This document shows, one piece after another, positions 21,087 through 57,383 of a stretch of DNA of 64,000 bases. Under the pieces are notes generated by a model that did no database searches, was not told the DNA's origin, and saw only the letters and a program-made list of their open reading frames with translations. The position numbers and the translations under genes were made by a program. Numbering within the stretch: position 1 is the first letter of the stretch; every line of letters begins with the position of its first letter. The stretch comes from Candidatus Latescibacterota bacterium (GTDB lineage Bacteria > Latescibacterota > UBA2968 > UBA8231). Location of the stretch: positions 1,024,001 through 1,088,000 of the forward strand of contig CBDCDC010000001.1 of NCBI GenBank assembly GCA_965215195.1, given 5' to 3'.

Positions 21087-21147
21087 GGGTTGTGAATTGG
21101 CCCCACCTCACTTAGGCTGAATCCACTTGGAAGGGTAAAGGAGTGCC

Positions 21148-22200
21148 ATGAAGGTCCTCATCACCGGCGGTACCGGCTATATCGGCAGTCATGCAGCGGT
21201 TGAATTGTTGAAGGCCGGCAACGACGTAGTACTGTTTGACAACTTCTCAACCAGCACGTCGCAGGTCGCCGCCGCCATTGGGGCCATTGCCGACCGCGAG
21301 ACCCCGCTCATCGTCGGCGATGTCCGCGACCTTGGCGCGTTGAACGCGGCGTTTGAAACGGACGCCTTCGATGCTGTCTTGCACCTCGCCGGTGCCAAGG
21401 CGGTCGGCGAGTCGGTCGCGTTTCCCCTTGCGTACTACGACAACAACGTCTGCGGTACCGTGCGCCTGCTCGAATGCATGGCGGCGCACGACGTCAAAAC
21501 CCTCGTTTTTAGCTCGTCAGCGACCGTGTACGGGGTCCCGGAGAGGATGCCCATTGGTGAGGATAGCCGGCTGGCACCGACCAATCCCTACGGACGCAGC
21601 AAGCTGATCGTCGAGAACATGCTCAAAGACCTGCATCGCGCCGACGGGTGCTGGCGCATCTCAATTTTGCGCTACTTCAATCCGGTGGGGGGCCACGCCA
21701 GTGGCCAACTCGGCGAGGACCCATGCGGAGTCTCCAGTAATTTGATGCCGTGTATTGGGCAGGTAGCCCTAGGGCGGCAACCGCATTTAGCCATCTTTGG
21801 CGACGACTATCCCACGCCAGACGGGACCTGCATACGCGACTACATCCACGTGGTCGATCTGGCCAAGGGGCACCTGCAAGCGCTGGCATTCCTCGCCGCC
21901 GGTCCCAAGCTGGCTATCCACAATCTCGGCACCGGAGTGGGGTATAGCGTAAGAGAGGTCGTCCGCGCCTTTGAGGCCGCGTCGGGACGCCCCATCCCTT
22001 GCAAGGTTGTAGGGCGACGCCCCGGCGATATTGCCGCGTGCTATGCGGACCCGTCGCGGGCTTGGGAGGAACTGGGGTGGAAGGCCGCATTCGGGCTCGA
22101 ACAAATGTGCCAAGACGCTTGGCATTCTCTATGCGGCCAGAATTTTGGTGGGGCCAGCGCGTCGCACAAATTTGGACGCCCGCCGACTGCAAAAACATAG
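21148..22200 (+). CDS. galE: UDP-glucose 4-epimerase
   Basis: TGGTGYIGSH, KAVGES, FSSSATVYG, YGRSK, LRYFNPVG, DGTCIRDYIHV. Confidence 0.92.
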   Translation: MKVLITGGTGYIGSHAAVELLKAGNDVVLFDNFSTSTSQVAAAIGAIADRETPLIVGDVRDLGALNAAFETDAFDAVLHLAGAKAVGESVAFPLAYYDNNVCGTVRLLECMAAHDVKTLVFSSSATVYGVPERMPIGEDSRLAPTNPYGRSKLIVENMLKDLHRADGCWRISILRYFNPVGGHASGQLGEDPCGVSSNLMPCIGQVALGRQPHLAIFGDDYPTPDGTCIRDYIHVVDLAKGHLQALAFLAAGPKLAIHNLGTGVGYSVREVVRAFEAASGRPIPCKVVGRRPGDIAACYADPSRAWEELGWKAAFGLEQMCQDAWHSLCGQNFGGASASHKFGRPPTAKT

Positions 22201-22296
22201 GATCACATACATATTTTGCACATGTTAAACACTTGGAGTGGTCCAATGATCTTCGGCAAAGAATTGTTGCAACAGGCTCAATGCCCTGAGTGGATG

Positions 22297-22612
22297 TCAC
22301 TCGGACAGGCTTTTCTCCAGTGCTTGCGCGATCCAGCTATTCAGGCTTAGGCCGCTCTCCGCCGCCGAGTGCGCAACGCGCTTATGTAAGTCTGGTCCGA
22401 GCCGCACGTTGAGCTTGCGGCTCGATGCCGTCTTCCTCACAGGACTTGAGATATTCGTCGATGGAGCGGTGGAACTCGCGCCGAATCCCCTCGACGTCGG
22501 TTGCTTCAAAGGTGGCAATCGGATAAGCACCGCTGTTGACGACCCGTCCGTGAAGGCGGCCCACGGAATCGTCGAATTCGACCTCGGCGGTGTATCCCTT
22601 GTAGTTCATCAT
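22297..22612 (-). pseudogene. hicB: HicB-family antitoxin, frameshifted
   Basis: N-terminus MMNYKGYTAEVEFD...EEDGIEP and C-terminus KLNVRLGPDLH...SLNSWI lie in different frames; the usual RKPFSG linker is missing. Confidence 0.8.
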
Positions 22613-22665
22613 GGCTTGACTCCTACGGCTTTGAGGAACGCGGCGATGTCGCGCACCGTGAGGTC
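22609..22665 (-). pseudogene. hicA: C-terminal remnant of HicA toxin
   Basis: TVRDIAAFLKAVGVKP* with ATGA overlap onto hicB. Confidence 0.6.
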
Positions 22666-22674
22666 CATCACATC

Positions 22675-22734
22675 CTGTTCGGACGCTGGGACGAGGATGA
22701 GTTCGCCCAGATTCAGCAGAAGATCGATTCCGAA
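22675..22734 (+). pseudogene. Fragment of a small (VapB-like) antitoxin
   Basis: LFGRWDEDEFAQIQQKIDSE resembles the C-termini of antitoxins paired with PIN toxins. Confidence 0.4.
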
Positions 22735-22758
22735 ATGCGAGATATCCCTCAGAGACGG

Positions 22759-23103
22759 ATGGCGACCAAGGACAACGACATACGCGCTATCGTCTCGTGT
22801 CTGTTGACTTGTGATCCCTATAGGGTCGTGCTTTTCGGCTCCTATGCCTTGGGGACGGAGGGGATGGGCAGCGATATTGATCTATTGGTCATCCTCGATT
22901 CTGAGGTCATCTCACAGACCTATCAGGAAAGAATGAAAAGAAGGCTTACAGTGAGGGACAGTATCCAAGAGATCAATAAACAGATTCCTATTGACCTCAT
23001 CGTCTATACTAAAGCCGAGTACGAACTTCTGCAGAGGCATGGCACTTCTTTTTTGAACGAGATAGAACGTTTAGGGAAGACGTTGTATGAAAAGGCAAGC
23101 TAA
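22759..23103 (+). CDS. Minimal nucleotidyltransferase (MNT) antitoxin
   Basis: LFGSYALG....SDIDLLVI, PIDLIVYT. Confidence 0.88.
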   Translation: MATKDNDIRAIVSCLLTCDPYRVVLFGSYALGTEGMGSDIDLLVILDSEVISQTYQERMKRRLTVRDSIQEINKQIPIDLIVYTKAEYELLQRHGTSFLNEIERLGKTLYEKAS

Positions 23104-23521
23104 GGCGTGGCTGGATTCGGCTCGCGATGACTTGGGGGTTGTAGAAGAAATCATCAACCGCGACGACCTGACGCACATGGTTGCCTTCCACTGCCAGCAG
23201 GCGGTCGAGAAATCGTTCAAAGCTGTTCTCGAAGAGTACGAGCAAACCGCACCAAGAGTCCATGACCTGATCACGCTCCGCCATCAGACTGAAAAGTATA
23301 TCAGGCTCGAGGTAGAATCGAAGCTTCTGAACCAATTGAATGAACTGTACATCGATGCGAGGTATCCCTCGGATTTCGGGCTACTCCCGGGCGGAAAACC
23401 ACCAAAGGAACTAGCCCAGAAGATGTACCATCTCGCTCGAAAGTTCGCTAGTACGCCCCCTCCTCTCCCGGCTCGCCCTCCTCTGGATAGAGCACTACCC
23501 GCACGTAGCGGTCCATGTTGA
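23087..23521 (+). CDS. HEPN-domain toxin (C-terminus probably truncated, reads into the convergent gene)
   Basis: FHCQQAVEKSFKA, HDL, YIDARYP; Pro-rich tail is antisense to the protease 3' end. Confidence 0.82.
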   Translation: MKRQAKAWLDSARDDLGVVEEIINRDDLTHMVAFHCQQAVEKSFKAVLEEYEQTAPRVHDLITLRHQTEKYIRLEVESKLLNQLNELYIDARYPSDFGLLPGGKPPKELAQKMYHLARKFASTPPPLPARPPLDRALPARSGPC

Positions 23522-26306: not shown

Positions 26307-26355
26307 GTTGGGCTCCTGTTTAAGTGGTCAATAGCCGATTTATTCATTCTTGAAT

Positions 26356-26570
26356 TCAACTGGTAGCAAAGATACCAAATGTACGCCCTGAAGAAAGCCG
26401 GGCATGATCCGCAGCGCAGCGCCCTCGACGATTTCTCGTCAGTTGCGGCGCAATCAAGGGCGGCGCGGCTATCGCCCCCGCCAAGCTCATCAGCAAGCGT
26501 TGGCACGTCGTCGCCACAAGGCGAAGGCGACCAAGATGACGGCGGCGGTCATCGAGCGCATCGAAGCGGC
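26356..26570 (+). pseudogene. IS30-family transposase N-terminal (HTH) remnant
   Basis: QRYQMYALKKAGH and STISRQLRRNQGRRGYRPRQAHQQALARR in different frames; no DDE domain follows. Confidence 0.75.
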
Positions 26571-28906: not shown

Positions 28907-28922
28907 GAGCGGGGATAGCACG

Positions 28923-40809: not shown

Positions 40810-40966
40810 GGTTTCCTCCGATAGGTGCGCGGTTGGTGGGCGACGTGCGTGTTGTCTCTACAATACAGTACGCGGCTGCGGTCTGACAAGGGAATTGTGT
40901 CGTTGTACTTCTCTACGCGCTGGTCGAGGGCAAGTCCGGGTTTTCGCTGAACGCGAGCGGATCACA

Positions 40967-41023
40967 GCCGACGTGGATTTCCGCCAAGCCTTGCCCCGCT
41001 TTCGCAAAGGCCCAGAAGTCATC
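40967..41023 (-). pseudogene. Fragment of type ISP restriction-modification enzyme C-terminal region
   Basis: DDFWAFAKAGQGLAEIHVG matches the DFWAFxxAGxxLxxxHxxYE pattern. Confidence 0.55.
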
Positions 41024-41068
41024 TCATCCATTTCTTTGAAGATGACGGACGATTTCTCGTCTTTTCAT
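41024..41068 (-). pseudogene. hicA: HicA toxin N-terminal stub
   Basis: MKRREIVRHLQRNG*, ATGA-coupled to the hicB stop. Confidence 0.65.
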
Positions 41069-41283
41069 GTCTGTATAAAAACAGACTCGCGAATCACATC
41101 TTGTATTTCCGCAATGGATTCTTCGGCGAGCATGCGGTTGGCCTCAAGCGTCATCTCAATCGCCTCTCGGAGATTGGCTCTGGCTTCTGCAAGCGTTTCC
41201 CCTTGCGTTTTGGCACCGGGCAATTCTTCGACAAATCCGATGTATCCTTCTGGGACTTTTCTGTAAACTGCGGTGAATTTCAT
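41065..41283 (-). CDS. hicB: HicB-family antitoxin
   Basis: GYIGFVEELPGAKTQGETLAEARANLREAI; GGAGG RBS upstream. Confidence 0.88.
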   Translation of the reverse strand: MKFTAVYRKVPEGYIGFVEELPGAKTQGETLAEARANLREAIEMTLEANRMLAEESIAEIQDVIRESVFIQT

Positions 41284-41464
41284 CTCGGAAACCTCCTGTT
41301 TTCTACCATCGGCGAGATATAGAGGGATATTTCTGTTCAAGAGATTCATAGCGTTGCTGCGCCGAAGCACCTTCTTACGTTCCCTATTCGTTCTCATCGC
41401 TCATAATCTTCTCCCCTCAAGATGAACTTCGGTTCTTCGGCGAGTAGGCGATTGGCCCAAGCTA

Positions 41465-41770
41465 TCACCGGGAGTAGTCCGATGGGTTTTTCATATTACC
41501 ATTGATCACAAATACAAATGCCTTAGATAGAAATTCTTTGGCTGTATTGTCTCCCCCGTGCGTCTCGACATCAATGAGAATAATATCATTTCGGATGTCT
41601 CCGGGAGGCTTATCTTTGATCGTCAAGTCGAGTACGAGAAGGATGCTGACTTGTCTGGCTTCGACGCCTGCGTATTGAGCCGCTTGGGCCGTGTACTTCT
41701 TCGAGATGTACTCTCGGTCGCCGTTTTCCTTTTCGACTTTTAGCTCAACGCTCACTCCTTGATACCTTTA
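41465..41770 (-). pseudogene. C-terminal fragment of a PD-(D/E)XK-like nuclease protein
   Basis: VELKVE...QAAQY...ILLVLDL; AT-rich; in-frame stop just upstream and no N-terminal part. Confidence 0.45.
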
Positions 41771-41816
41771 ATATAGCAATCCTAAATCAATGTATATTGC
41801 CTTGAATTCTACTCGT

Positions 41817-44111
41817 ATGTATCACCGTCTGCTCAAAATCGCCCTGTGGAGCGGCGGTGCTTTGCTCTGGCTAGCGGGTGTGGTCGCGGCCGAGCAGGTC
41901 CGCTTTGACGCGGCCAATGAGTGGCGGACTTGGCGTTTGCCGCTGGGGATTGTTGCACTCGACGCGGCCGGCGTGATCCGCCCGGTCGAAATTCGCAAAA
42001 ACGCCGACCCGGTGCGCAATGCCGCGGCCTTTGGCGGGGGCATTCGGGCGGCGGGTTCCAATCGGCGGGACGCGGCCTTGGTCATGGACGGGGATCCGCT
42101 GACCGGCTGGGCACCCGACCCGGACGCGGCCTTAGACGACCGCTGGATCGAGATCGACTTGGGACGAGCCGTGGCCGCGCGCCGGGTCGCGCTGACCTTT
42201 TTGGATGCCGCTCGGCCGTGTGCGCTGTTCGACGTGTTGCTTTCTACTGGGGAGCCAGCCATCGACGTGGTCGGCAACCCCATTGCAGGCAGCCTCGTGT
42301 ACCGCGTACAGGAGCGCTTCAAGGAAAACCAACGGCAGGGGGTCGCGCTAGAATTGGACCCGGTACGCGACCCGTTTGTGCAATTTATTCGCGTCGAAGT
42401 GCTCAACTGTGGTGCCGGGGCCGCGCTGGCCGAGGTGGAGGTCGAAGCCATCGGCGACAACCTCGCCTTGGATCTGGCGGCCAAGGGCGGGGACTTGGAA
42501 ATCATCGTGGATATCGACGGCTTTGGCGACGCGGCGTCGTTTGCCAACTCCCTGCCGCTGGCCGACGGCCGCTTTTCACTGTGGACGGAAAACCGCCGCA
42601 TCAACCGCTCGGTGGATGTAATCTCGCGCATGACCTTGGACTTGGGCGCGGTCTTTTGGGTGGATTTGGTGCGCATCGTGGGGGATTTTTTGTCGCGGCC
42701 AGGGCAATTCCGCTTCAACTTCGACCGCTACGAGGTGCTGACTGCGGATGGATCGCTGGCACCAGATGGTACGCGGATATGGCATCGGCAATTCGCCGGC
42801 AAGGCCACGCGGTCCAATCGCCAGCTCGGGATCGCCAACCACCACTTTGAGCCGATTGAGACGCGCTACGTGCGGGTCGAATGGGTGTTTTGGGACGCGG
42901 CCTGCGCGGCCGCTTGCGTGGGCTGTGGCATTGTGCCGCCCTGCCAGTTTTGGGGCGGTACGCGCGAGCTACAGATCTTTGGCGAGGGCCATCCGCAGCG
43001 GGTGGTGTTGCCCTCGCCCCTGATCGACCTCGGCGGCGACAAGCAGGTCCACGCGATCCACTGGCGGGCCGACGCACCCGCTGGGACGCGGGTGGAGGTG
43101 CGCAGCCGCACGGGCAATGACCTGCAAATGGACATCACCTATCGCGACAAAAATGGTCGGGTCGTCTCCGAGCGCAAGTACAACAAGCTCATTCCGTCCT
43201 TTAAGGGCCGGATCGACACCGCCCTGTCGCCGGGGGCCAATTGGAGCCCGTGGAGCAAGCTGTACTTGCAGCCGGGCGAGCCGTTTTCTTCGCCTTCGCC
43301 GCGGCAATACGCCGAGCTGGAGGTCGCCTTGGTGTCCGAGCGGTCGGATGCGGGGGTGGCTTTAGATTGGCTGGAGATCGAGTTCGGCGATCCGGTGGCG
43401 CAAGAAGTGGTGGGGGAGATTTTTCCGGTTGAAGTGCAGCCCGGGGAGCCGACCGAGTTTGCCTATTACATTCGTCCGCAGCAGGTGGCGGGTTCGGGCT
43501 TTGATCACTTGGAGGTGGAGACCTCCGCGCCGATTGAGTTCGTGGCGGTGTTGGTGGCGGGCGAGGTGGTGGAGGCGATGGCCGAGCCGACGGCCGGGGG
43601 GTTGGCCATCGCCTTGGCTGCGCCGGTCAAGAGCCGTCAGCTAGTGGAGTTGCGCTTTGCTGGAACCGTGTTTGTCGATGCCACGCGCTTTGACGCCTTT
43701 ATTGCCCAAGGCTCGGCCGACGCCCTGTTGCGGCAGCGGGTGGATGCCGGCGACGCGTACGCGGAGGTCGCCAGCAGCACAAATGCCGTGCGCTTGCCCG
43801 TAGGGGCGCGGCTGTTGGCCAACGTGGCGATGGGGCCGCTGGCGTTGACGCCCAACGGCGACGGGGTCAACGACGCGCTGCGGGTGGAATTCGATTTGGT
43901 CAATGTCTTGGCCGCACGGTGGATCGGCCTGCGGATTTTCGACCTTGCGGGGCGGGTGGTGTGGGCGCGGGAAGAGGAGGGCGCGGCCGGTGGGCGGGTT
44001 TGGGTTTGGGACGGCCGGGGGGCTGCCCCCGGGCTGTACGCGGCGGAATTGCGCGTCGAGGGGGACGGGGAAAGCGATAGTCGGCGGCGCGTGGTCGCCG
44101 TTGTCTACTAG
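41817..44111 (+). CDS. Secreted tandem F5/8-type-C-like + FlgD-Ig protein (subtype B)
   Basis: Signal peptide; WIEIDLGR, GDNLA, DLGAVFW, SRTGN, WSPWS, LTPNGDGVND, WDGR. Confidence 0.78.
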   Translation: MYHRLLKIALWSGGALLWLAGVVAAEQVRFDAANEWRTWRLPLGIVALDAAGVIRPVEIRKNADPVRNAAAFGGGIRAAGSNRRDAALVMDGDPLTGWAPDPDAALDDRWIEIDLGRAVAARRVALTFLDAARPCALFDVLLSTGEPAIDVVGNPIAGSLVYRVQERFKENQRQGVALELDPVRDPFVQFIRVEVLNCGAGAALAEVEVEAIGDNLALDLAAKGGDLEIIVDIDGFGDAASFANSLPLADGRFSLWTENRRINRSVDVISRMTLDLGAVFWVDLVRIVGDFLSRPGQFRFNFDRYEVLTADGSLAPDGTRIWHRQFAGKATRSNRQLGIANHHFEPIETRYVRVEWVFWDAACAAACVGCGIVPPCQFWGGTRELQIFGEGHPQRVVLPSPLIDLGGDKQVHAIHWRADAPAGTRVEVRSRTGNDLQMDITYRDKNGRVVSERKYNKLIPSFKGRIDTALSPGANWSPWSKLYLQPGEPFSSPSPRQYAELEVALVSERSDAGVALDWLEIEFGDPVAQEVVGEIFPVEVQPGEPTEFAYYIRPQQVAGSGFDHLEVETSAPIEFVAVLVAGEVVEAMAEPTAGGLAIALAAPVKSRQLVELRFAGTVFVDATRFDAFIAQGSADALLRQRVDAGDAYAEVASSTNAVRLPVGARLLANVAMGPLALTPNGDGVNDALRVEFDLVNVLAARWIGLRIFDLAGRVVWAREEEGAAGGRVWVWDGRGAAPGLYAAELRVEGDGESDSRRRVVAVVY

Positions 44112-45061
44112 CAGTTGTGCCTGTCCGCCAACAGTTTCTTACACCAGGTGATTTGGGTGTTGAGGCCGTACTCCAGGGCGGTGTTGGGGGCGAAGCCGAG
44201 CATAGATCGCGCCTTGTCGATATTGGCCCGCGTATGGGTCTGATCACCAGGGCGCGGCGGAAGAACTTTCAGGCGAGCCTTCTCGCCCAAAATTTTTTCC
44301 ACGATCTCAATCCCGCGCCTTGTCGTCGTCTCGATATCCGAGCCAATGTTGAAAATTTCACCTGCACACTGGTCTGGGTGATCGAGGACCGCGAGGAGTC
44401 CGGCTACGGCGTCTTGTACAAATGTATAGGCGCGCTTGTGGTCCTGACTGCCGTCGTATAAAGGGAAATCCTCGCCTTGCAAGATGCTGCTTATCAGCTT
44501 CATGTAGAGTTTTTCTGGGCGCTCGCGCGGGCCATAAACAGAGAATAGGCGCATGGAACACACGGGCAACTTGCGCTCGCGCCAGTACGCCAATGCCAAT
44601 TGCTCGGCGGCGAGCTTGGTCGCGCCGTAGTAGGAGATGGGCGCGGGCACGGCAGTCTCGGCGGCCGTGGCACGCCGTCCATAGACCGACGAAGTAGAGA
44701 TGTTGACTAGGAAAGGTCGTCGCTTGCTCCTCGCGCACGCTTCGAGTAAGGCGCGGGTGGCGACTAGATTGTTGCGCACGTACGCGTCTGGAGGAACGCG
44801 AGCGGCAAGGCCGGGTTGGGCTGCAAGGTGGAATACCAGTTCGGCGTCTGCAAGTGCCCCCTCCAACTTGTCGCAGGCCAAGTCCAACTGCTCGATTCGC
44901 ACCCCGGCATCTGCCAGCTCGCACGCGTTGCGCCTCTTCATCCAGACCGGATAGTAGTCGCTGAAAGCATCGACGCCAACTACGTTGTGCTCGAGGGACG
45001 CTAGCCGTTCGCAAAGATGCGATCCCACAAAACCTGCGGCACCTGTTACGACAATCTGCAC
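44108..45061 (-). CDS. NAD-dependent nucleotide-sugar epimerase/dehydratase
   Basis: TGAAGFVGSH, HLAAQPG, STSSVYG, YGATK, VYGPRERP. Confidence 0.9.
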   Translation of the reverse strand: MQIVVTGAAGFVGSHLCERLASLEHNVVGVDAFSDYYPVWMKRRNACELADAGVRIEQLDLACDKLEGALADAELVFHLAAQPGLAARVPPDAYVRNNLVATRALLEACARSKRRPFLVNISTSSVYGRRATAAETAVPAPISYYGATKLAAEQLALAYWRERKLPVCSMRLFSVYGPRERPEKLYMKLISSILQGEDFPLYDGSQDHKRAYTFVQDAVAGLLAVLDHPDQCAGEIFNIGSDIETTTRRGIEIVEKILGEKARLKVLPPRPGDQTHTRANIDKARSMLGFAPNTALEYGLNTQITWCKKLLADRHNC

Positions 45062-45256
45062 GACACCCTTCTATGTTCTGTACACTGTTCGCGTCTGACG
45101 AAAGCGGCGGAAATGTTTAGTTAGTCAATGAGACTGTTTAGTATAACCAACATCTGTAAATATGGCTAATCAATGACGTAAGTCGATGTATTTTCTATAT
45201 GTAGAACGCCTCGTTACCTACTTCCAAGCCTTTGAAAATTTTTACCTGACGGGCAT

Positions 45257-45281
45257 TCGCGGGCGAGACGCCCTCGATCCC
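45257..45281 (+). repeat. REP-like palindrome (GGGCG-AGA-CGCCC-TCGATCC)
   Basis: Hairpin; near-copy at 51039..51065. Confidence 0.55.
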
Positions 45282-45473
45282 AGCGGCTTGGAGTCAAGGC
45301 CGAGAGCGAAACCCTAGTTTTCAGATGGCTTCTTAAGGCGGGCAAGGAACTGGTGCTCAAATGCCACCCACCGGACTTTGCCGAGCCTTCTTAGGCCCGA
45401 CCCGCTCTTGGCACTATATTATGGAATTAATACGCGAAACCACTAGCGTCGTTCAGGCGCGGGAGAACGGAAT

Positions 45474-46136
45474 ATGAGACTGATCCTCGTAGGTTGCGAA
45501 TACGTCGGCAAGACGACCTTAGCTGGCGAAATTGTCGGTTGGATTGAGCGCACCTTTGGCTCGTCGCGCACCTTCCACGACCACTTCAGCCTGCCGTGCA
45601 ACGAGTTCCCCGTAGAGGAACAGGAGCAACTGCTGGCACTTAGTCCGCGGCTGAAGGAAATGTTCCAGCGCTACATGATGAACTACCACTTCCATCCCGC
45701 CTTTTACAGCGACCCGGACCACAACTTGGTGGGTTTCCACCTTGAAGAGGCCGTGTACGCGCCCCTGTACTACGGCTACGGGGGCCGAGGCGAGTACGCC
45801 GACCGCGCCGCACTGGCTCGGGCCTTCGACGAGGAGATCATGCAGCACGCGCCCGATACGGTACTCGTGCTGCTGCGCGCCCGGCCCGAAGTCATTGCCC
45901 AGCGCATGCGCGAGCAGCCGCACGAGCGGCCGGTGGTGCAAGAAAAGGATATCGAATGCGTGTTGCAGCGCTTTGAGGAGGAATTTAGCGACTCGCTCAT
46001 CCGCAAGAAATTCGCCCTCGACACGTCCGACGCCACAGTAGAGCAGACCTTGGCGGAATTCACCGGGGAGATAAAAAAGCACCTCAGCGAAGCCGACCGC
46101 TTGCGCCTTTTGGCCCATCAGAACTGGCCGACCTAG
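45474..46136 (+). CDS. P-loop nucleoside/nucleotide kinase-like protein
   Basis: N-terminal LILVGCEYVGKTT; LVLLRA.PEVI..R lid region. Confidence 0.6.
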   Translation: MRLILVGCEYVGKTTLAGEIVGWIERTFGSSRTFHDHFSLPCNEFPVEEQEQLLALSPRLKEMFQRYMMNYHFHPAFYSDPDHNLVGFHLEEAVYAPLYYGYGGRGEYADRAALARAFDEEIMQHAPDTVLVLLRARPEVIAQRMREQPHERPVVQEKDIECVLQRFEEEFSDSLIRKKFALDTSDATVEQTLAEFTGEIKKHLSEADRLRLLAHQNWPT

Positions 46137-46139
46137 GCC

Positions 46140-47612
46140 ATGCCGCAGCCCTTTCTCGACTGGTATGGCGTATGGGCCGGTCAAGCCGGCATCGCCGGCG
46201 GCCAAGCTTGGGTGCAAGACCCGCCGGTTGGCGTGCGCTTGGCCGTGCAGGAGGCGCGCAAATCCCCGGTTTTTATTAAGCCGGAGCATCCTTGGGAAGC
46301 GGGTGGCCTGACGCCGCAAGCCGTGCTCTGCGATGGCGGTGTGCTGAAGATGTGGTACATCGCCCGCGGCGCAGGGGACGACCCCCCCCCCTTCATCGCG
46401 TACGCCGAGAGCGCGGACGGCTTTTGTTGGGAGCGACCAGCCCTGCATTTGCAAGAGTACGGCGGCAGCACGGCCAACAACCTGCTCTTTCGCTTTGGCG
46501 ACTTTGGGCTGCAATCCGCATTTGTGGATCCGGCGGCCCCACCGCAGGCTCGTTACAAAGCGATGGCGCGCGATTCCATTACCTATCACGAGGGCGTGCC
46601 GGTGCCGGCGATGACGCGGGAGCGCAAGTGGGCCATTCGCCGCGCCATGACAGAGGCCGGCTACACGCCAGAGCAGCGAGCCGCCGCTTTGTATTTCGTC
46701 GGCTTGCTCAAAGGGGCGGTGTCGCCCGACGGCAAGCAGTGGACGTTTTTGCAGGAGCCGCTTTTGAACGTGGGCCGCACCGGACTCGACAGCCACAACA
46801 TCGCCGCGTACGACGCGGAAGCCGGCCAATACGTGGCCTATTTGCGCGGCCATCAGCATCGCCGCCGCATCGTGCGCCGCACCGAGGGCGCGGAGTTTGG
46901 GAAATGGTCGCGGCCGCGCCCGGTATTCGGCGCGGACCCGCAAGATCCCATCGACGACGACGTGTACGCGTCGGGCTATTGCCGCTATCCCCACGGCGGC
47001 TTCCACCTGATGTTCCCGGCCATGTACCACCGCTGGACGGCCACGATAGATGTGCAATTGGCGACCAGCCGCGACGGCTCCTTGTGGAGCCGGCCCGAGC
47101 GCAAGCCCATCATCTCCCGCGAGCCTGAGGGGTACGGCATGGTGTTTGCCTTCCCGGAATTGGTCCCGCTCGGCCCGGAGACGTGGGGCGTGATGTTCAT
47201 CGGGCAGTACGACTTGCACGACTGGGGCGAGCGGCGCGATCCGGGCCGTCCTGCGGAATGGCGTTGGGCCACTTGGAAGCGGGATCGGCTGGTAGCTCTC
47301 GAAGCGCCGGTGGAGGGGCGCGCAACGCTGGTTGAACGCGCGTGCGAGGGCTGCGAGTTGACGCTCAATTTTCAGACGCAAAAGGAAGGCGGTTGGATCA
47401 AAGCCGAGCTGGTTGAGCCGCCCGCTTCGCCGGCCGCGCCGGTGCAGGCCATAGCGGGCTTTGGGGTACAGGAAGCCGACGCGCTGGCTGGCGACGAGTT
47501 GGCCGGGGTGGCGACGTGGCGGGGAAGCAGCGATTTGTCGGCCTTGCGCGGCAGGCAGGTGGCCATTCGCCTGCATCTATCCCGGGCGAAGGTGTTTGCG
47601 GTGGAGATGTAG
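46140..47612 (+). CDS. Beta-propeller (GH32/43/130-like) hypothetical protein
   Basis: PEHPWE, AYAESADGFCWERP, SPDGKQW, LATSRDGSLWSR Asp-box-like motifs. Confidence 0.6.
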   Translation: MPQPFLDWYGVWAGQAGIAGGQAWVQDPPVGVRLAVQEARKSPVFIKPEHPWEAGGLTPQAVLCDGGVLKMWYIARGAGDDPPPFIAYAESADGFCWERPALHLQEYGGSTANNLLFRFGDFGLQSAFVDPAAPPQARYKAMARDSITYHEGVPVPAMTRERKWAIRRAMTEAGYTPEQRAAALYFVGLLKGAVSPDGKQWTFLQEPLLNVGRTGLDSHNIAAYDAEAGQYVAYLRGHQHRRRIVRRTEGAEFGKWSRPRPVFGADPQDPIDDDVYASGYCRYPHGGFHLMFPAMYHRWTATIDVQLATSRDGSLWSRPERKPIISREPEGYGMVFAFPELVPLGPETWGVMFIGQYDLHDWGERRDPGRPAEWRWATWKRDRLVALEAPVEGRATLVERACEGCELTLNFQTQKEGGWIKAELVEPPASPAAPVQAIAGFGVQEADALAGDELAGVATWRGSSDLSALRGRQVAIRLHLSRAKVFAVEM

Positions 47613-47955
47613 GTTGGGCCGCCAGGACCGCGAAGGGTGGGGTGCCAAGGTGATTGACCGTCTGTCCCATGACCTACGCGATGCCTTTCCGGACATGCGG
47701 GGGTTGTCGCCGCGCAACCTCAAGTACATGCGCGCCTTCGCCGCCGCTTGGCCGGACCGCGCAATTGTGCAACGCACCGTTGCACAAATTCCTTGGCGCA
47801 GCAACGTGACCCTGCTCGACAAGGTCACGGACGCGCAAACTCGCCTGTGGTACGCCCAAAAAGTCCGTGAGGAAGGTTGGAGTCGGGATGTGCTGGCGAT
47901 GCAGATCGAGACCAAGCTACACGAGCGCGAGGGCAGGGCTGTCACCAACGATTGA
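47613..47955 (+). pseudogene. YhcG/DUF1016 N-terminal domain fragment (truncated at both ends)
   Basis: EGWGAKVIDRLSHDL..FPDMRGLSPRNLKYMRAFA, QIPW, WSRDVL; no start codon and no PDDEXK half. Confidence 0.85.
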
Positions 47956-47985
47956 GGCTGAGTTGTCCGGGTGGGAGAATGGGGA

Positions 47986-48510
47986 ATGAATGCCGACCGG
48001 AAAATCATTGTCATCGCCGGACCCAATGGCGCGGGAAAAACGACCTTTGCACGGGAGCATTTGCCGCACGAAGCTGAATGTCCCGCCTTTGTCAACGCCG
48101 ACCTGATCGCAGCGGGTCTGTCTCCTTTTCAGCCGGAAGCCGCTCTTTTTCGCGCTGGCCGGTTGATGTTGGAGGAAATTAAAAATCACGTGCAGCAGCG
48201 AAGAAGTTTTGCCTTTGAAACTACCTTGTCTGGTCTCGGCTATGCCAGCATGATCCCGCGCTGGCGCAGCGACGGTTATGCGGTCAAGCTGATATTTCTG
48301 TCGCTGGCAACGCCGGAAGAAGCGATCAAGCGGGTTGAGTTGCGCGTAAGGCAAGGCGGCCACCGCGTTCCACCGGAGGTCATTTGCCGCCGCTTTGCGA
48401 GTGGTTTGCAGAATTTTCAGAATACGTATCGCCACATCGTCGATTATTGGCAGTGGTTTGATAATGGTGGCCGCATTCCCAAATTGATTGATGAAGGAGA
48501 AAACCCATGA
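47986..48510 (+). CDS. Zeta-toxin-like P-loop protein
   Basis: IAGPNGAGKTT, FVNADLIA, FAFETTLSG, RVRQGGH. Confidence 0.88.
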   Translation: MNADRKIIVIAGPNGAGKTTFAREHLPHEAECPAFVNADLIAAGLSPFQPEAALFRAGRLMLEEIKNHVQQRRSFAFETTLSGLGYASMIPRWRSDGYAVKLIFLSLATPEEAIKRVELRVRQGGHRVPPEVICRRFASGLQNFQNTYRHIVDYWQWFDNGGRIPKLIDEGENP

Positions 48511-48704
48511 AAGAGCCGAAGCAACCAATCCCCGTCTCTAAACTTGACGATCCCGCTATGCAGGCTGTCCCCATTGCGTTATACCGCGCTGCTAGACGTG
48601 CGCACAAAATCGCCCATCAGCATAAGACCGGGGTGGTGATTATGGAAAAAGGCAAGGTCATCGAGATTGAACCGGATCCGGAGATGTACGAGGAGAAGAA
48701 GTAG
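48507..48704 (+). CDS. Small hypothetical protein, probable partner of the zeta-like protein
   Basis: ATGA overlap; ALYRAARRA..IA......VVI. Confidence 0.65.
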   Translation: MKEPKQPIPVSKLDDPAMQAVPIALYRAARRAHKIAHQHKTGVVIMEKGKVIEIEPDPEMYEEKK

Positions 48705-48824
48705 AATAGTGCAACAGCTCGTTGCCCAAATTGTGCAAGAAATTCCTCGGCGAAGGCTCCACTACCGAGTTCAAATGAGCTAGGTCCTCCGCCCTCGGGC
48801 GGGAGATTTGCGCCTTTGCCACTT

Positions 48825-48846
48825 TTGTATATGCTTATTGTATATC
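48825..48846 (+). promoter_or_regulatory. Putative vapBC operator/promoter
   Basis: Two TGTATAT boxes upstream of vapB, preceded by TTGCCA. Confidence 0.45.
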
Positions 48847-48872
48847 CAAATTGATTAAAGCGAGGTTATAGC

Positions 48873-49109
48873 ATGGCAACGGCACACACGAAAGTTTTTA
48901 TGAGCAACAAGAGCCAAGCGGTGCGGCTGCCCAAGGCCGTTGAACTGCCGGAATCGGTGCGCGAGGTCGATATCGTCGCGATAGGGTCAAAGCGCGTTAT
49001 TACTCCTGCTGGCGAGAGTTGGGATGAGTGGTTCAACGGACCCGGTGTTTCGGATGATTTTATGTCGGTACGGGAACAGCCGGCCGATGCACGGCGAGAA
49101 AAACTGTGA
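48873..49109 (+). CDS. vapB: VapB antitoxin (AbrB/SpoVT fold)
   Basis: TKVFMSNKSQAVRLPKAV...SWDEWF...VSDDFM..REQP. Confidence 0.93.
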   Translation: MATAHTKVFMSNKSQAVRLPKAVELPESVREVDIVAIGSKRVITPAGESWDEWFNGPGVSDDFMSVREQPADARREKL

Positions 49110-49510
49110 TGCTCAGGTATCTGCTAGATACCAATGTGGTGATTTATGCCATCAAGAACCGCCCCCAATCGCTGCGGCAAAAATTCAATCGGTCGCAAGG
49201 TCAGATGGCGATTTCTTCCGTAACTTGGGGCGAACTTGTCTATGGCGTTGAACGCTCCGCCCAACCCGAGCGCAATCTGGCGGATATTGAATCGCTGGGC
49301 ACTAGGCTTGAGATCATGCCGTTTGACCAAGTTGCAGCCAGCCATTTTGGTCGAATCCGTGCAGAGCTGTATCGCGTTGGTGCTCCGATTGGCCCCTACG
49401 ATATGATGATCGCGGGTCAGGCGCGTGCGTCCGGGCTAGTTTTGGTAAGCAATAATGTAAAAGAGTTTGAAAAAGTTCCGGGGCTCATGCTGGAAAACTG
49501 GGTCCGCTGA
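49106..49510 (+). CDS. vapC: VapC PIN-domain toxin
   Basis: YLLDTN, EL.YG, PIGPYDMMIAG, VSNN.KEF. Confidence 0.95.
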   Translation: MMLRYLLDTNVVIYAIKNRPQSLRQKFNRSQGQMAISSVTWGELVYGVERSAQPERNLADIESLGTRLEIMPFDQVAASHFGRIRAELYRVGAPIGPYDMMIAGQARASGLVLVSNNVKEFEKVPGLMLENWVR

Positions 49511-49570
49511 TTGGAAGCGGTCTGGCGGCCTGCACCCGGCCGCCCCGGCGATAAGCACGTCAAGGTCGAA

Positions 49571-49624
49571 AGGGCCTGCGACCTGCTTGTCCCGCGCCTG
49601 ATGACCGGCGAGATAACAATATGA
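49571..49624 (+). pseudogene. hsdS: C-terminal remnant of type I R-M specificity subunit
   Basis: RACDLLVPRLMTGEITI* resembles the RDLLLPRLMSGEI ending. Confidence 0.65.
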
Positions 49625-49645
49625 ACAGTTGAAGGAGATGGTCTG

Positions 49646-49699
49646 ATGAGCGCGAAAACCTTGTTCTTGGCATGGCAAGACCAGCCTTTGGACTCTTAG
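49646..49699 (+). pseudogene. N-terminal stub of a HIRAN-domain-type protein
   Basis: AAGGAG RBS followed by MSAKTLFLAWQD, then a stop. Confidence 0.45.
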
Positions 49700-49840
49700 C
49701 AATAAGCACTTGACCGCTTGCGCTGGATATGCGCTCATTAACCGTTGTTTCCGTTGCGCGCCGAGAAAGGAGGGGCTTGAGCAGAGGCGAGCGGGTGTGC
49801 TTTTTGTCGAGTTGTTTTACTCTAAAACGAGGAGGATTGC

Positions 49841-50773
49841 ATGAGAACGCATGCACAGATGCTTTTGGGAGGAGCCTTGGTGCTCCTCGTCAGCGCGACC
49901 GCTTGGGGGCACGTGGGGGTTGAGTATTTTTATCCGCAGGTGCCCGATCCAGCCTCTATGGTCATGGACGGCAAAGCCGACGACTGGGGCTGGCTCGACC
50001 AAGAGGAGTTTGCCATCACCACCGAGCAGATGTTTGGCCAGCAGGGCGAAGAGATTTCGCGCGACGATATCGACGTAGCCTTCTGGATGGCGTGGAGTGC
50101 GCCGCCGGACAATCAGTTCTACTTCTATGCGGTGGTGACCGACGACACGCTCAAGCTGCTCGAATCCGATCAGAAGCGCTGGTGGTCGGACGACATCATC
50201 CAGATCACGTTTGATGCCGATCACTCCGGCGGCGACTTCTTGGGCGAAAACTTGGACCACGTGCTCAATGGCCAGCGCTACCACCTCCGCATCAATCCGG
50301 GGCCGGGCCAGCCGGTTGCGTACAACAGCCAGCTCGAATACATCGACCTGCCGGAGATCGGCTGGAGCTCGGATGTGTTCAACGGCGAGCCAACGCCTTG
50401 GTTTGAGGTGGGCTGGACCCTGCTGCCGTCGGGGGCCGGGCACGGCTCGACCAATGTCACGTGGACCATGGAGTTCCGCTGTGCCCTGTGGGACAGCTAT
50501 GCGACGACGCCCGAGGAGAGCGTGCGCCACGTGTTCGCGGAAAATCAGGTGATACACGTCGGCCCCAAGTTCAACGACCGCGAGCCAGTGGCCTCGGATG
50601 AAGCGTCGCCGTTCCGGCACAACTTGCTGCCCTTGGGCTCGGCCGCCGCGCAAGACCAAAAGGGCGATCAGATGCCCGACTGGATCGGCTTGGGTACCGA
50701 CGACGAGCCGACGGCCGTGGAGGAAACTTCGTGGGGACGGGTTAAGAGCCATTTGCAAGGCCAGTTGGAGTGA
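49841..50773 (+). CDS. Secreted CBM9/DOMON-like protein with C-terminal TAVEETSWGRVK motif
   Basis: GAGGAG RBS; signal peptide; MDGKADDW, FDADHSGG; paralogue of 9931..10812. Confidence 0.65.
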   Translation: MRTHAQMLLGGALVLLVSATAWGHVGVEYFYPQVPDPASMVMDGKADDWGWLDQEEFAITTEQMFGQQGEEISRDDIDVAFWMAWSAPPDNQFYFYAVVTDDTLKLLESDQKRWWSDDIIQITFDADHSGGDFLGENLDHVLNGQRYHLRINPGPGQPVAYNSQLEYIDLPEIGWSSDVFNGEPTPWFEVGWTLLPSGAGHGSTNVTWTMEFRCALWDSYATTPEESVRHVFAENQVIHVGPKFNDREPVASDEASPFRHNLLPLGSAAAQDQKGDQMPDWIGLGTDDEPTAVEETSWGRVKSHLQGQLE

Positions 50774-50801
50774 AGTGGGAAAACGTCAAACGGCTAACGC
50801 G

Positions 50802-50836
50802 AGCGGTGTCGGAAGGAGCGTGCCGACACCGCTTTG
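50802..50836 (+). terminator. Probable terminator hairpin
   Basis: AGCGGTGTCGG / CCGACACCGCT 11-bp stem after the stop codon; weak T tail. Confidence 0.5.
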
Positions 50837-51038
50837 CTGTTTGCAGGGGAAAATTTCACCCTTCCAGCGAGGGGTTTCTATCAAATGCCACCGACCCCAT
50901 AAGGCCATCCCCCACGCTTGTCTAAACAGACGCCCCTACACAAATGACCTATTCAGAGTTTACGAGCTTAGTACACGACCCCTAAAGTAGGCGACCCTTA
51001 CTTTGAGTACGCATTTTCTGCTGTTGCCGATGGGTCCG

Positions 51039-51065
51039 GGATCGAGGGCAAGATGCCCTCGATCC
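51039..51065. repeat. REP-like palindrome GGATCGAGGGCA-AGA-TGCCCTCGATCC
   Basis: Perfect 12-bp stem; related to 45257..45281. Confidence 0.6.
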
Positions 51066-51120
51066 TTGGCCGGCTGAGGGCTGGTGGCGTGTAGTAAGGT
51101 TTATGAGATAACTTCTAATA

Positions 51121-52752: not shown

Positions 52753-52865
52753 GATTTCGGCGGCTGGGTAGGACCGGCAAATGCGCCGATAAAGGACACC
52801 GGGCGGGGCGGCAAGTAGGGAATAACGATCGTTCGAACCGCCGTCATCTACCAAGGGAGAATACA

Positions 52866-53924: not shown

Positions 53925-53941
53925 GGAATGGAGGAATTTTT

Positions 53942-55378
53942 ATGGGACATCCCAACCTGCTGTACATCTTCACCGATCAGCAGCGCGTGGATACGCTGCG
54001 CTGCTACGGCAACGAGCAGATCGAGACCCCGGCCCTCGACGCGCTGGCCGCGGACGGCTTTGTCTTTGAAAACGCCTACGTGAGCCAGCCGGTGTGCAGC
54101 CCGGCGCGGGCCACCATGCTGACCGGGCTGTGGCCGCACGCGGCCGGCGTGCCCGCGTGCAATGTGCCGCTGCGCCCCGAGGTGCCGACCTTTGCCGAGC
54201 TCCTGCCGCCGGAATACCAGACGGCCTTTATGGGCAAATGGCACTTGGGGGATGAAATTTTTCCCCAGCACGGGTTTGCAACGTGGGTCGGCAGCGAAGA
54301 CTCGTACCGGCGTGGCTATTCCGCGCCGGAGCGGCTGGCCGCGCTCAGCCCGTATCACCACTTCTTGATTGAGCAGGGGTTTGTGCCCGACGCCGAGAAC
54401 CTCGGCCAGCGCGTGTTCTCGCGCCACGCCGAGGCCTCCATGCCGGAGGAATACACCAAGGCCGCGTTTTTGGGCGAGCAGGCCGCAGAGTACATCCGCC
54501 AGCGCGGCGACGCGCCCTTTGCGCTATGCGTCAGCTATCTGGAGCCGCACCCGCCGCACACCGGGCCGCTCAACGACTATTACGACCCGGCGACCCTGCC
54601 GACCGGACCGAGCTTTAGGCAGCCCCCGCCGGCCGACGCGCCCTTGATCGTGCGGCTGATGGCGGCCTTTTACTCGGCTTCGGAAAACTACGGGTTGGAC
54701 TTGCAGACCGAGGCTGGCTGGCGCGGGCTAATGGCCCGCTATTGGGGCAATGTGACGCTGGTGGATCGCTCGGTGGCCCAGATCCTCCAAGCCTTGGACG
54801 AGAGCGGCAAGGCCGACGACACCATTGTAATTTTCACGTCGGATCACGGCGAACTCATGGGCAATCACGGGATTTTGGGCAAGACCCTGATGTACGAGGA
54901 ATCGATCAAGGTGCCGTTGCTGCTGCGCGCCCCCATGCTGGGCGCGGGGCCGCGGCGGATCGGCGGCCAGTTCAGCCACATCGACTTGGTGCCCACGCTG
55001 CTCGACTTGCTGGGGCTAGATGCGCCGGATCATTTGCAGGGGCAGAGCCGGGTGCCAGTGCTGTGCGGCCGCTCCGACTTGGCGGCCAACGATGTGTTTG
55101 TCGAGTGGAGCGGCACCGACGGCCATCCGCCGGCCTCGATCGGCGAAGCCGAGCCGAACCGCAGCTTGGCCCATCCCGTCCGCACCATTGTCGCGGCCAA
55201 TGGCTGGAAGCTCAACCTGTACGGCGCGGGCCAAGGCGAGCTATACGATCTGAACGCCGACCCCCACGAATTGGCGAATCTATACTACCGGCCCGAGCAA
55301 CGCACGCGGATCGGCGAACTGAGCGAGCGGATTCGCGCCTGGCAGGAGCAGACCGGCGACGAGGTGGCGCTGCCCTAA
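53942..55378 (+). CDS. Cys-type sulfatase
   Basis: PNLLYIFTDQQR, CSPARATMLTG, GKWHLG, FTSDHG. Confidence 0.95.
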   Translation: MGHPNLLYIFTDQQRVDTLRCYGNEQIETPALDALAADGFVFENAYVSQPVCSPARATMLTGLWPHAAGVPACNVPLRPEVPTFAELLPPEYQTAFMGKWHLGDEIFPQHGFATWVGSEDSYRRGYSAPERLAALSPYHHFLIEQGFVPDAENLGQRVFSRHAEASMPEEYTKAAFLGEQAAEYIRQRGDAPFALCVSYLEPHPPHTGPLNDYYDPATLPTGPSFRQPPPADAPLIVRLMAAFYSASENYGLDLQTEAGWRGLMARYWGNVTLVDRSVAQILQALDESGKADDTIVIFTSDHGELMGNHGILGKTLMYEESIKVPLLLRAPMLGAGPRRIGGQFSHIDLVPTLLDLLGLDAPDHLQGQSRVPVLCGRSDLAANDVFVEWSGTDGHPPASIGEAEPNRSLAHPVRTIVAANGWKLNLYGAGQGELYDLNADPHELANLYYRPEQRTRIGELSERIRAWQEQTGDEVALP

Positions 55379-56044
55379 TTATTCGGCATTGCCTTTTGCA
55401 GCAAGATCGCGCACGAACTGAGAGAGGGCATCAAACGCCGGGGATTGGAAGTTCCACACTCCTTGTTGAGCACCTTCGCCGACCCTAGCTACGGGATTCC
55501 TCTTCGCGGCGAGGTAGGCGTGAGCGAAGGTCTTGTCGTGGTTTCTCGAACACAGGGCATTGCGGGTTTTCAGGCACTCTATGTACTCGTCGACGCATTG
55601 GGCCGCGTCTTCGCCTGCTACGGAACGCCGACAGAGGGTCTCAATGGCACCGGATTGGGAGCCGTCGGGCACGATGAACACGCCAATCGACGGAGTGTCG
55701 TTTGAGAATTCAGCGTGAGCGGGAGGTGGTTCGTACCCGGCGCTGCGGAGGCTGCCGCAGACGCTATCGAAGCTGCCCTGTGGGTTGTCGTCGGCGTCTC
55801 GTACAACGCCGACTGAACGGAGCGTTGGTCTAGCTTGGGCGGCCGCCTTTATCCCCTTCAGGTTTTTTGTAAAGTTATTCTTGCTGCCAACATCCACTAT
55901 CTGGATGCCCTGCCCATCGTCCTCGAGACAGTCCTTGATGAGCCTCTCTAAAAGGTTCACTTCGTCTTTGCCTTCGACAAGCAATAGCCGGTCTGCCGTT
56001 AGCTCAACTCTCGGAAGTCCTGCTCGACTCGTTGCGATCATCAT
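55379..56044 (-). CDS. DUF3226 (TOPRIM-like) protein
   Basis: LLLVEGKDE, VVRDADD, GAIETL. Confidence 0.78.
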   Translation of the reverse strand: MMIATSRAGLPRVELTADRLLLVEGKDEVNLLERLIKDCLEDDGQGIQIVDVGSKNNFTKNLKGIKAAAQARPTLRSVGVVRDADDNPQGSFDSVCGSLRSAGYEPPPAHAEFSNDTPSIGVFIVPDGSQSGAIETLCRRSVAGEDAAQCVDEYIECLKTRNALCSRNHDKTFAHAYLAAKRNPVARVGEGAQQGVWNFQSPAFDALSQFVRDLAAKGNAE

Positions 56045-57087
56045 CGGACCTCCAAGTTGAGATTCCGCGCACCTTCGAGGGCCTCGCCGGTGAAGGTCGC
56101 TGCTTTGATGTTTCCCGACTCGTTCTCAAAGAGATTGTGGATGGACAAGTCATTGGGTTCGTCGGCAAAAGCCTCCATTGCCGCATCAATGCACTCGGCG
56201 CTGTGGGTCGTCGCGATGAATTGCACATTCCATTCGTGCATCCAATCGCGGGCGCGAGCCCAGAGGTTCCGTAGCACCGAATAGTGAAGGCCATTTTCTA
56301 TCTCGTCGATAAGCACTAGGCCGTTACGGGCAGCGAAGAAATTTAGATATAACTTGAGAAGCCGCACTATACCGCCTCCTAGATTTTCTAGGCGACGTTG
56401 ATCTCCGTTATCTGTGATTGCCGAAAGGTACGATTCCCCATTTTCGTCTGTAAGTATCTGTACATCCTTAACGTTTGGCAGAATCAAATTTACGGCATTC
56501 GCTAGGTCCTCTTTTCGACCTTCCCTAACCATATCGGAATAAAGTTTCAGGTATTCCCCCGATATTTCAAGTTGCCATCTTGTACCTTCGATTATGCAGG
56601 TGATCCTAGGCGTTACCGAATCAGAAAAGCCACGTTCGACTAGCCCTTTCGGGGTGTTATGCCTTGCTGGGAGCGTACCGTCAAGCTCTTTATTGTCAAT
56701 CCACGTGCGAAGGCGACCGACAACGGGGCGTTGTTCCAGCTTGTACCTAGCATCGGTAATAGCTACTGTCTCCCATGTTATCTCTTCTATCTCTTCAAAG
56801 GTCGCTTTCCATTCGTGGCGTTCTTCGCCTTCGGTTCCACAAAGTTTTAGAGACTTGTCGGACAAGTCCGATATGGGATTTACGATTGGATTAGTGGACC
56901 GTTGTACATTCGCGTTCCACAGCAATTGAGTATTGTGTCTTCCCATAAAGAGCCAGATTGCTTCGATAAGTGCCGTTTTCCCAACGCCGTTTGCACCGGT
57001 GATCAGGTTCGCGTGGCTCAATTTTGGCAGGGACAAGCCGTTGATGCCACGGTAGTGAACTGCCTCGAAACTGCTGAGATGAATCAT
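56041..57087 (-). CDS. AAA_15/AAA_21 ABC-type ATPase
   Basis: GANGVGKT, LGGG signature, LIDEIENGLH, ATTHS. Confidence 0.88.
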   Translation of the reverse strand: MIHLSSFEAVHYRGINGLSLPKLSHANLITGANGVGKTALIEAIWLFMGRHNTQLLWNANVQRSTNPIVNPISDLSDKSLKLCGTEGEERHEWKATFEEIEEITWETVAITDARYKLEQRPVVGRLRTWIDNKELDGTLPARHNTPKGLVERGFSDSVTPRITCIIEGTRWQLEISGEYLKLYSDMVREGRKEDLANAVNLILPNVKDVQILTDENGESYLSAITDNGDQRRLENLGGGIVRLLKLYLNFFAARNGLVLIDEIENGLHYSVLRNLWARARDWMHEWNVQFIATTHSAECIDAAMEAFADEPNDLSIHNLFENESGNIKAATFTGEALEGARNLNLEVR

Positions 57088-57186
57088 TGGATTCCTCCGC
57101 TATTGGAAGCCTGCTCTAGTCCGCAGCAGCAGGAATTTCTGTGCGCTCATACAGCAACGCACTTGAGCAAAGCCGGCGTCGCCGAC

Positions 57187-57337
57187 TCAAGTAGAATCGC
57201 TATCGACACGCGAATGGAAGCCGCTACCTCTGGCCAGCGAGCCGATTAGGTACACGCGCTCGGCTCCGTATGCTTCGACTAGGGCTGTGGCGCAGACGCT
57301 TTTGCCAAGCCTCAATGTACGATCTGTAGGCGTCCAT
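57187..57337 (-). pseudogene. Internally deleted MNT nucleotidyltransferase remnant
   Basis: MDAYRSYIEAWQKR and ALVEAYGAERVYLIGSLARGSGFH in different frames. Confidence 0.65.
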
Positions 57338-57383
57338 AAATGGAAGTATAACGGAAGAGGGCATCGCACACACGGAGACGCTT

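Follow-up and report, generated by a model that had tools for sequence, protein, structure and literature searches.

Mosaic spacers of defense-gene fragments in a Latescibacterota genome are probably eroded alleles of site-specific accessory islands

Short fragments of defense and toxin-antitoxin (TA) genes lie packed between core genes at four places in a 64,000-nucleotide stretch of a Candidatus Latescibacterota bacterium genome (assembly GCA_965215195.1, contig CBDCDC010000001.1, positions 1,024,001 to 1,088,000; hereafter the window, numbered from its first letter), which raises the question of how such DNA reaches gene ends and what breaks it up there. The original prediction, made from the letters of the window, held that a genome-wide process repeatedly delivers unrelated scraps of defense islands and shuffles them by short-homology recombination. 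Here, the four spacers (S1 to S4) were compared with the orthologous regions of about 30 congener genomes, many of them single-contig, as far as their flanks could be located. The window is part of contig 1 of its own genome, G000 (6.1 Mb in two contigs, 95% complete). Our analysis indicates that the spacers are probably eroded alleles of site-specific accessory islands, built by housekeeping recombination without a dedicated integrase.

All four spacers are variable sites common to the genus. The backbone genes are 85 to 94% identical to those of the congeners and mostly syntenic, and between them S1 ranges from 430 to 7,254 bp (11 alleles), S2 from 240 to 11,090 bp (15 alleles), S3 from 160 to 17,168 bp (14 alleles, plus six reached through other anchors, two of those clipped by contig ends), and S4 from 21 to 3,479 bp (20 alleles). 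A fifth variable site, from 44108 onward, spans 41 bp to 12.7 kb among congeners. S1 begins at 21087 rather than at 22200, as first proposed, because the galE gene is itself cargo. In congeners, S3 is a type I restriction-modification (R-M) island holding hsdM, yhcG, zeta and its partner, hsdS, vapBC, AlbA, HipA, HIRAN, and hsdR; full-length hsdR is present in 8 of 19 congener S3 alleles, and the position of vapBC within the island differs between congeners.

Six-frame translation recovered the scraps where they had been proposed, and the intact modules and larger pieces were confirmed by Pfam or NCBIfam as HicB, MNT, HEPN, zeta, VapB, PIN, AAA_21, and DUF3226, together with a DUF1016_N match at 47614-47949 (E 4e-33). 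The smaller scraps alone gave no Pfam match; they match full-length congener genes at 74 to 98% nucleotide identity, the parents being Type ISP, HicA, FitA-like antitoxin, AlbA_2, HIRAN, HsdS, and MNT genes. The parent of the 41401-41774 piece, first labeled a putative PD-(D/E)XK nuclease, has no Pfam match and matches only LmuA in PADLOC. Altogether, 10 of the 11 delimitable scraps have a full-length counterpart at the same spacer in congeners (the second yhcG piece was assigned to its parent indirectly, through G013), the parents mostly keep the order and orientation of the scraps, and the first yhcG piece has six matches, all at S3. The exception is a 14-codon gene start at S2, which we take to be hicA-like; its partner hicB is represented in 30 congeners by just a 137-bp piece located elsewhere. 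Neither this start nor 41284-41400 has a parent in the 30 congeners searched, and 41284-41400 and 49532-49560 have no congener parent and no family match. Full-length donors, which the original prediction expected in the genome or its relatives, thus exist in congeners at the same spacer for 10 scraps, while a close donor inside G000, sought for every scrap, was not found; the sole match of a named scrap was 71% for the ISP piece. Taken together, the same-site parents, the S2 exception, and a divergent yhcG allele indicate that most scraps are inherited remnants of longer islands and that some new DNA has arrived. The mosaics as such are real; repeated delivery of unrelated scraps is not supported, for the scraps are remnants of whole genes from site-specific pools.

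The junctions point the same way. Among 128 junction rows across the arrays, which are partly redundant and in which the parents' 10% divergence masks some homology, 40 share 4 nt of homology or more, where 1.7% would be expected, and 69 show 1 nt or less. Small deletions, with sizes spread across 5 to 22 bp, show 1 nt or less in 21 of 27 cases, and the 13 window junctions that could be resolved by eye divide into 5 with 3 to 11 nt and 8 with 0 to 2 nt. Erosion and reshuffling do occur, as had been proposed; short homology is not supported as their general mechanism. The excess of homologous junctions, as well as the two S2 pieces and 49532-49560 that lack a same-site parent, would suit the idea that unrelated short scraps came from the genome or from outside and were joined at short homologies, which in concept is short-patch double illegitimate recombination. 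However, most junctions are blunt, G000 holds no close donor, and the parents sit at the same site in mostly the same arrangement, so that we consider this idea very improbable. A preferred deletion size, to which three 17-bp deletions in the window had pointed, was dropped in view of the 5- to 22-bp range.

Could the joints have arisen in assembly? S2 is bridged by short-read contigs of runs X1 (40000-43875) and X17 (40660-45285), S3 by X17 (45296-50992, without difference) and X18 (47619-50852), and S4 by X1 (54201-58500); X17 may be the source sample, and X1 comes from another study. Therefore, the three spacers are not assembly chimeras. At S1, the joined forms of G000 at 22733/22734 and 23443/23444 were not bridged among the listed short-read contigs, and conspecific runs carry longer alleles, with 547 extra nt at the former position and about 50 nt at the latter. 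These two unbridged junctions are what an artifact of chimeric long reads or amplification can claim; since S2 to S4 are spanned, in one set from another study, and many junctions are also present in other species, we give such an artifact practically no weight. The conspecific allele with 547 extra nt indicates that erosion is ongoing. A contig of run X1 diverges three bases past the host stop (47615 onward) and continues for 425 other letters, representing another conspecific S3 allele. Some runs labeled sponge or marine metagenome contain just 9 to 13% of the words, and we claim no habitat.

The process extends far beyond the window, as the original prediction had supposed. In two arbitrary 400-kb stretches, we scanned for variable spacers of at least 200 bp between colinear blocks and found 62 in the G018 stretch and 63 in the G001 stretch, or 125 per 800 kb, about one per 6 kb. 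The expected enrichment at stop codons was also seen: of the block edges, 56 of 111 lie no more than 10 nt from a stop, compared with 18 of 116 for starts (no gene was called near 23 edges), and the excess holds for cargo of at least 500 bp (30/56 versus 9/53). At sites with cargo in both genomes, cargo matched at the same site in 36 of 60 G000 spacers, a count that includes one CRISPR array and some plain diverged spacers, compared with 15 of 3,540 other-site pairs, 11 of those 15 falling in one paralog cluster. This tandem cluster with repeated gene ends, at G000:C2:1246843-1277062, is the source of most cross-site matches. Among 128 cargo proteins drawn from gaps of 250 to 8,000 bp, 75 had a Pfam match, which we sorted by hand into 27 defense or TA proteins, 4 transposases, and 44 others (metabolic, transport, or repeat proteins). 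Therefore, the process is site-specific and not defense-specific, contrary to the defense-DNA specificity first assumed. Further systems were seen near the sites in congener alleles: a Tiamat-like protein with a helicase (PDC-M23; G001, L042:5886-13653), SIR2 with PDC-M54A (G018, L062:1220-6395), TIR with CARF and a methylase (G002, L038:10435-13658), and a Mokosh-like system (G003, L020:3446-6952).

A clue to how cargo enters comes from duplicated tails of host genes. No shared repeat had been noticed in the window, yet copies of a host gene's 3' end serve as a site-specific repeat: the last 22 bp of an ABC ATPase gene (13455-13476) recur at 20103-20124, beyond a 6.6-kb insert, at an ATPase/permease junction that is empty in 14 congeners. 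The seven filled alleles of this junction carry duplications of 22, 22, 79, 47, 109, 25, and 28 bp with differing edges (22 bp in G000 and G005; 79, 47, and 109 bp in G001, G002, and G012). Both repeat copies hold lineage-own variants in G000, G005, and G001, and the insert itself is only 74 to 84% identical. Genome-wide, a downstream tail copy of 22 to 155 bp was found at 29 of 3,799 gene ends, compared with 2 and 2 in mid-gene controls (p 4e-7); this gene-end test took over from an exact-repeat genome scan that was too noisy. The right edge of the duplication lies within 4 nt of the stop in 13 of the 29, and the 29 target sites have no common sequence. As for the insert (13533-20101), which also occurs at the site in G001, G002, and G005, its 1,766-residue protein has only a weak AAA match, the atlas neighbors of its 414-residue protein (score 0.97) are unnamed or belong to Swt1-like HEPN clusters, and neither PADLOC nor NCBIfam gave a match; the two genes are a candidate undescribed defense pair.

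Such duplications invite the proposal of a dedicated, undiscovered enzyme or small circular element that makes staggered cuts near gene ends and uses the tail as an attachment site for insertion and excision. The clustering of right edges at the stop agrees with it, the lineage-specific variants in both repeat copies are what a fresh target duplication would give, and G000 does contain four tyrosine recombinases and three Cas1 genes, none of the recombinases being on the window's contig. On the other hand, duplication length and position vary at a single junction, the targets share no sequence, and gene conversion from empty alleles would likewise homogenize the repeats. The machinery itself did not appear: the best integron integrase score in G000 was 82.6 bits against the TIGR02249 cutoff of 265, neither Ku nor a Y1/RAYT transposase (PF01797) was found in G000, a simple pattern search of the four spacers gave 0 attC-like core pairs, no repeat was shared among spacers in the largest families listed, and the window proteins scanned included no integrase or transposase. 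At 95% completeness this does not prove absence; it agrees with the initial impression that no integron is involved, and a dedicated enzyme seems to us quite unlikely. Rfam reported only a tRNA-Val, at none of the spacers. Dispersed repeats resembling repetitive extragenic palindromic (REP) elements lie at 45256-45343 and at 50967-51100, where contig depth is very high; their core motif occurs 171 times in the genome, with no Y1/RAYT found. They were rejected as insertion sites because the core is present in 15 of 125 variable spacers versus 122 of 951 overall, with no enrichment.

Tail copies also serve as joints inside arrays, and several observations fit exchange between lineages. Alleles of S4 hold the M24-peptidase and HepT/MNT cassettes singly or in both orders (G011/G037 versus G035), and the joints of both orders are copies of the sulfatase tail. 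An AAA/DUF3226 pair stands in place of HepT in G000, G002, G010, G018, and G041, with MNT kept or eroded, and G008 is empty. The internal tail copies match other genomes at 98 to 100% (the G009 copy to G035, the G035 copy to G001). Within arrays, 17 of 24 duplicate pairs have both copies nearer to another genome than to each other. Four-fold degenerate sites of vapBC differ at 5 of 111 positions between G000 and G041, compared with 76 of 477 in the flanking core genes, and at 3 of 105 between G011 and G038, compared with 73 of 463. ComEC and DprA genes are present in G000. A purely vertical history, in which each site once held a single large ancestral island, later duplicated in tandem within the genome and pared down at random, lineage by lineage, without any exchange, would directly yield site-specific pools and could account for the repeated gene starts beside moved modules (in G041 the AlbA start flanks vapBC at either end, and in G010 the hsdR start is present twice) and for the 7 of 24 duplicates whose own second copy is their nearest match or ties with it. 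Nevertheless, vapBC synonymous divergence is 3 to 5 times under that of the backbone in several pairs, the near-identical internal tail copies sit in different genomes, and new DNA arrives, since 30 congeners offer no close same-site relative for either the S2 hicB module or the divergent yhcG allele. We therefore regard a history without exchange as unlikely.

Intact orphan antitoxins recur in the arrays (FitA-like, dinJ, vapB, MNT, and hicB), with MNT lacking HepT in G002, G010, and G041. No orphan toxin keeps its start codon, and vapC in G012, the only lone toxin that is nearly complete, is without its first codons. This pattern fits selection against lone toxins.

According to the above-described analysis, we propose that the islands would be built by housekeeping recombination and eroded in four steps. 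First, as the pattern of filled and empty sites shows, a cassette enters at a gene end and leaves a direct repeat of the host tail of 22 to about 150 bp. Second, alleles would pass between lineages when homologous recombination uses the flanking core genes as anchors, the DNA probably being taken up via ComEC/DprA, and one crossover falling on a leftover gene tail, on a scrap common to both alleles, or on an illegitimate joint would produce tandem alleles or partial displacement of a module, with altered gene order and repeated gene starts; the first joint of a displacement would be hidden because of later deletions. Third, as the eroded alleles show, most of the DNA is stripped by deletions, which range from 5 bp to many kb and in about two thirds of cases lack microhomology. 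Fourth, selection would halt erosion where it reaches the stop codon or promoter of a host gene and would purge lone toxins, so that intact TA pairs, orphan antitoxins, and scraps may be what is left.

Several observations weigh against this proposal. A host-tail copy is absent from every S2 or S3 array and from G000's own S1 to S4, and the first step is therefore extrapolated there; several of the 29 tail copies represent one site counted twice or tandem paralogs. Alignment ends favor stop codons anyway because spacers diverge faster, which inflates the stop-codon excess. Old intragenomic duplications inherited by several congeners would give the same pattern of duplicate pairs. Only 13 of 55 vapBC pairs, chosen after the fact, fall under half the backbone divergence, and constraint on an overlapping operon could add to the low divergence of vapBC. 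The presence of ComEC and DprA does not establish competence, MutS is present and should curb exchange at 10% divergence, and insertion sequence transposases lie within some congener alleles. A bolder extension would make the host-tail duplicates integrase-free attachment sites and hundreds of operon junctions miniature cassette arrays, swapped, stacked, and reordered between species 10% apart, possibly via circular intermediates or an end-targeting enzyme, with the scraps as a record of past defense content; we put it forward as a doubtful speculation.

The features of the window are collected in Table 1. At S1, the loss of the HEPN stop codon at 23443 lets the frame (23087-23521) run into the convergent M16 peptidase gene (stop at 23448), which it overlaps by 74 nt, and the longer allele is kept in conspecific runs.

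Table 1. Coordinates of cargo, scraps, and repeats at the variable sites of the window
Coordinates	Strand	Feature	Remarks
13455..13476	+	Sugar ABC ATPase gene, last 22 nt	Left copy of target duplication
13477..20102	+	6.6-kb insert (1,766-residue AAA-domain and 414/423-residue open reading frames)	In operon junction, empty in 14 congeners
20103..20124	+	22-nt duplication, right copy	Directly before permease start
21087..22295	+	galE-type epimerase cassette, gene 21148-22200	Cargo; different locus in G002
22297..22612	-	hicB antitoxin	Frameshift from 17-bp deletion at 22417/22418
22611..22659	-	hicA, last 14 codons	Whole gene at S1 in G001, G002, G012
22659..22733	-	FitA-like antitoxin (90 residues) scrap	Whole at S1 in G001, G002, G006, G012
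22734..23103	+	~19-nt HEPN-derived scrap fused to MNT gene without first 22 codons	Same fusion in G018
23087..23443	+	HEPN gene	~50 nt including stop codon lost relative to G018 and conspecific runs
40909..41020	-	Type ISP R-M scrap, residues 888-923 of 1,029	Whole at S2 in G018, G040
41021..41283	-	hicB-like antitoxin, intact (41065-41283), then 14 codons of presumably hicA-like start	At S2 in 0/30 congeners
41401..41774	-	LmuA-like protein 3' end, residues 398-497 of 497	Whole at S2 in G040
44108..45197	-	Epimerase cassette behind 41790-44111 gene	Fifth variable site
47613..47949	+	yhcG/DUF1016 N-terminal scrap, begins directly after host stop	Divergent allele, 75-76% to same-site yhcG
47971..48704	+	Zeta-like toxin, intact, and 65-residue partner	
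48705..48821	+	Second yhcG-like scrap (48705-48741) and AlbA_2 5' scrap (residues 12-36 of 502)	
48873..49510	+	vapBC, intact	Synonymous divergence from G041 far under backbone's
49561..49684	+	hsdS, last ~21 codons, joined to first codons of HIRAN-domain gene	7-nt overlap at joint
55379..57087	-	AAA ATPase and DUF3226 pair, intact	PADLOC PDC-M38-like; stop abuts sulfatase stop
57121..57360	-	MNT antitoxin remnant	Four internal deletions (17, 17, 86, 62 bp); HepT partner absent

For the question of how integrase-free defense hotspots originate and turn over, this genus offers about 30 genomes in which given junctions are found empty, singly filled, tandemly filled, reordered, or eroded, so that the steps can be ordered and tested. 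The spacers also carry a warning: in such genomes, isolated antitoxins and fragments of defense genes are products of decay rather than new systems. Our literature search, with most subscription papers beyond reach, found no paper on such spacers in this lineage.

Among known systems, integrons add cassettes at a fixed site, in varying orders and often with TA genes. The spacers resemble them in having TA-rich cassettes beside a fixed site in differing orders; unlike an integron, they have no IntI, attC-like pairs, or inter-site repeat, and their units are not single genes and break inside genes. Closest to the first step is the long-target-duplication insertion of R-M systems described by Furuta, Abe and Kobayashi in 2010, mostly in naturally competent species and with the mechanism left unproven (PMC2853133). 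As there, the insert lies between direct repeats of its target that vary in length, relatives have the site empty, and no mobility gene is present. Here, however, the target is typically the 3' end of a protein gene, the cargo goes beyond R-M to TA pairs and metabolic genes, the repeats serve as joints of tandem accretion with heavy erosion afterward, and the 22-bp repeat of G000 at 13455 is under that paper's 30-bp threshold. The class calls for an insert with both R and M genes, and the 6.6-kb repeat-flanked insert has no PADLOC match; the type I R-M island that congeners carry at S3 has no host-tail repeat.

Integrase-free recombination hotspots, which make up about 1% of spots within species (2017, PMC5635113), share with our sites the variable cargo between conserved core genes, the high turnover, and the lack of an integrase. 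Our sites have a spacing of about 6 kb when species of about 90% identity are compared, which is another kind of measure and not directly comparable, and their alleles are internally mosaic, not simply replaced. In Vibrio cholerae, effector-immunity modules of the type VI secretion system are displaced sequentially, which Kirchberger et al. (2017) ascribed to homology-facilitated illegitimate recombination (PMC5361080). S4 has such a form, with AAA/DUF3226 replacing HepT and MNT retained, and as in displacement arrays the old protective gene is kept and the toxin lost (MNT without HepT; orphan FitA-like, dinJ, vapB, and hicB). Displacement joints combine one homologous anchor with one illegitimate end, and the junctions here are mixed, blunt and microhomologous; moreover, the anchor is any core gene tail instead of a secretion-system gene, with mixed cargo at many loci. 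Touzain et al. (2010) reported hundreds of short variable loci per alignment, 10 to 18% of them repeat-flanked, and ascribed them to illegitimate recombination (PMC2884548). Our sites resemble these loci, and the segments here were traced to whole same-site defense genes, a tracing that the available part of that study does not contain. The component processes are thus already known; the spacers work like those systems and are neither a formal member of the R-M class nor an integron. They are an exceptionally dense instance of a known process that works without an integrase, and what they add is the density, the presence of both cassette orders at one gene tail, and the tracing of scraps to their parents.

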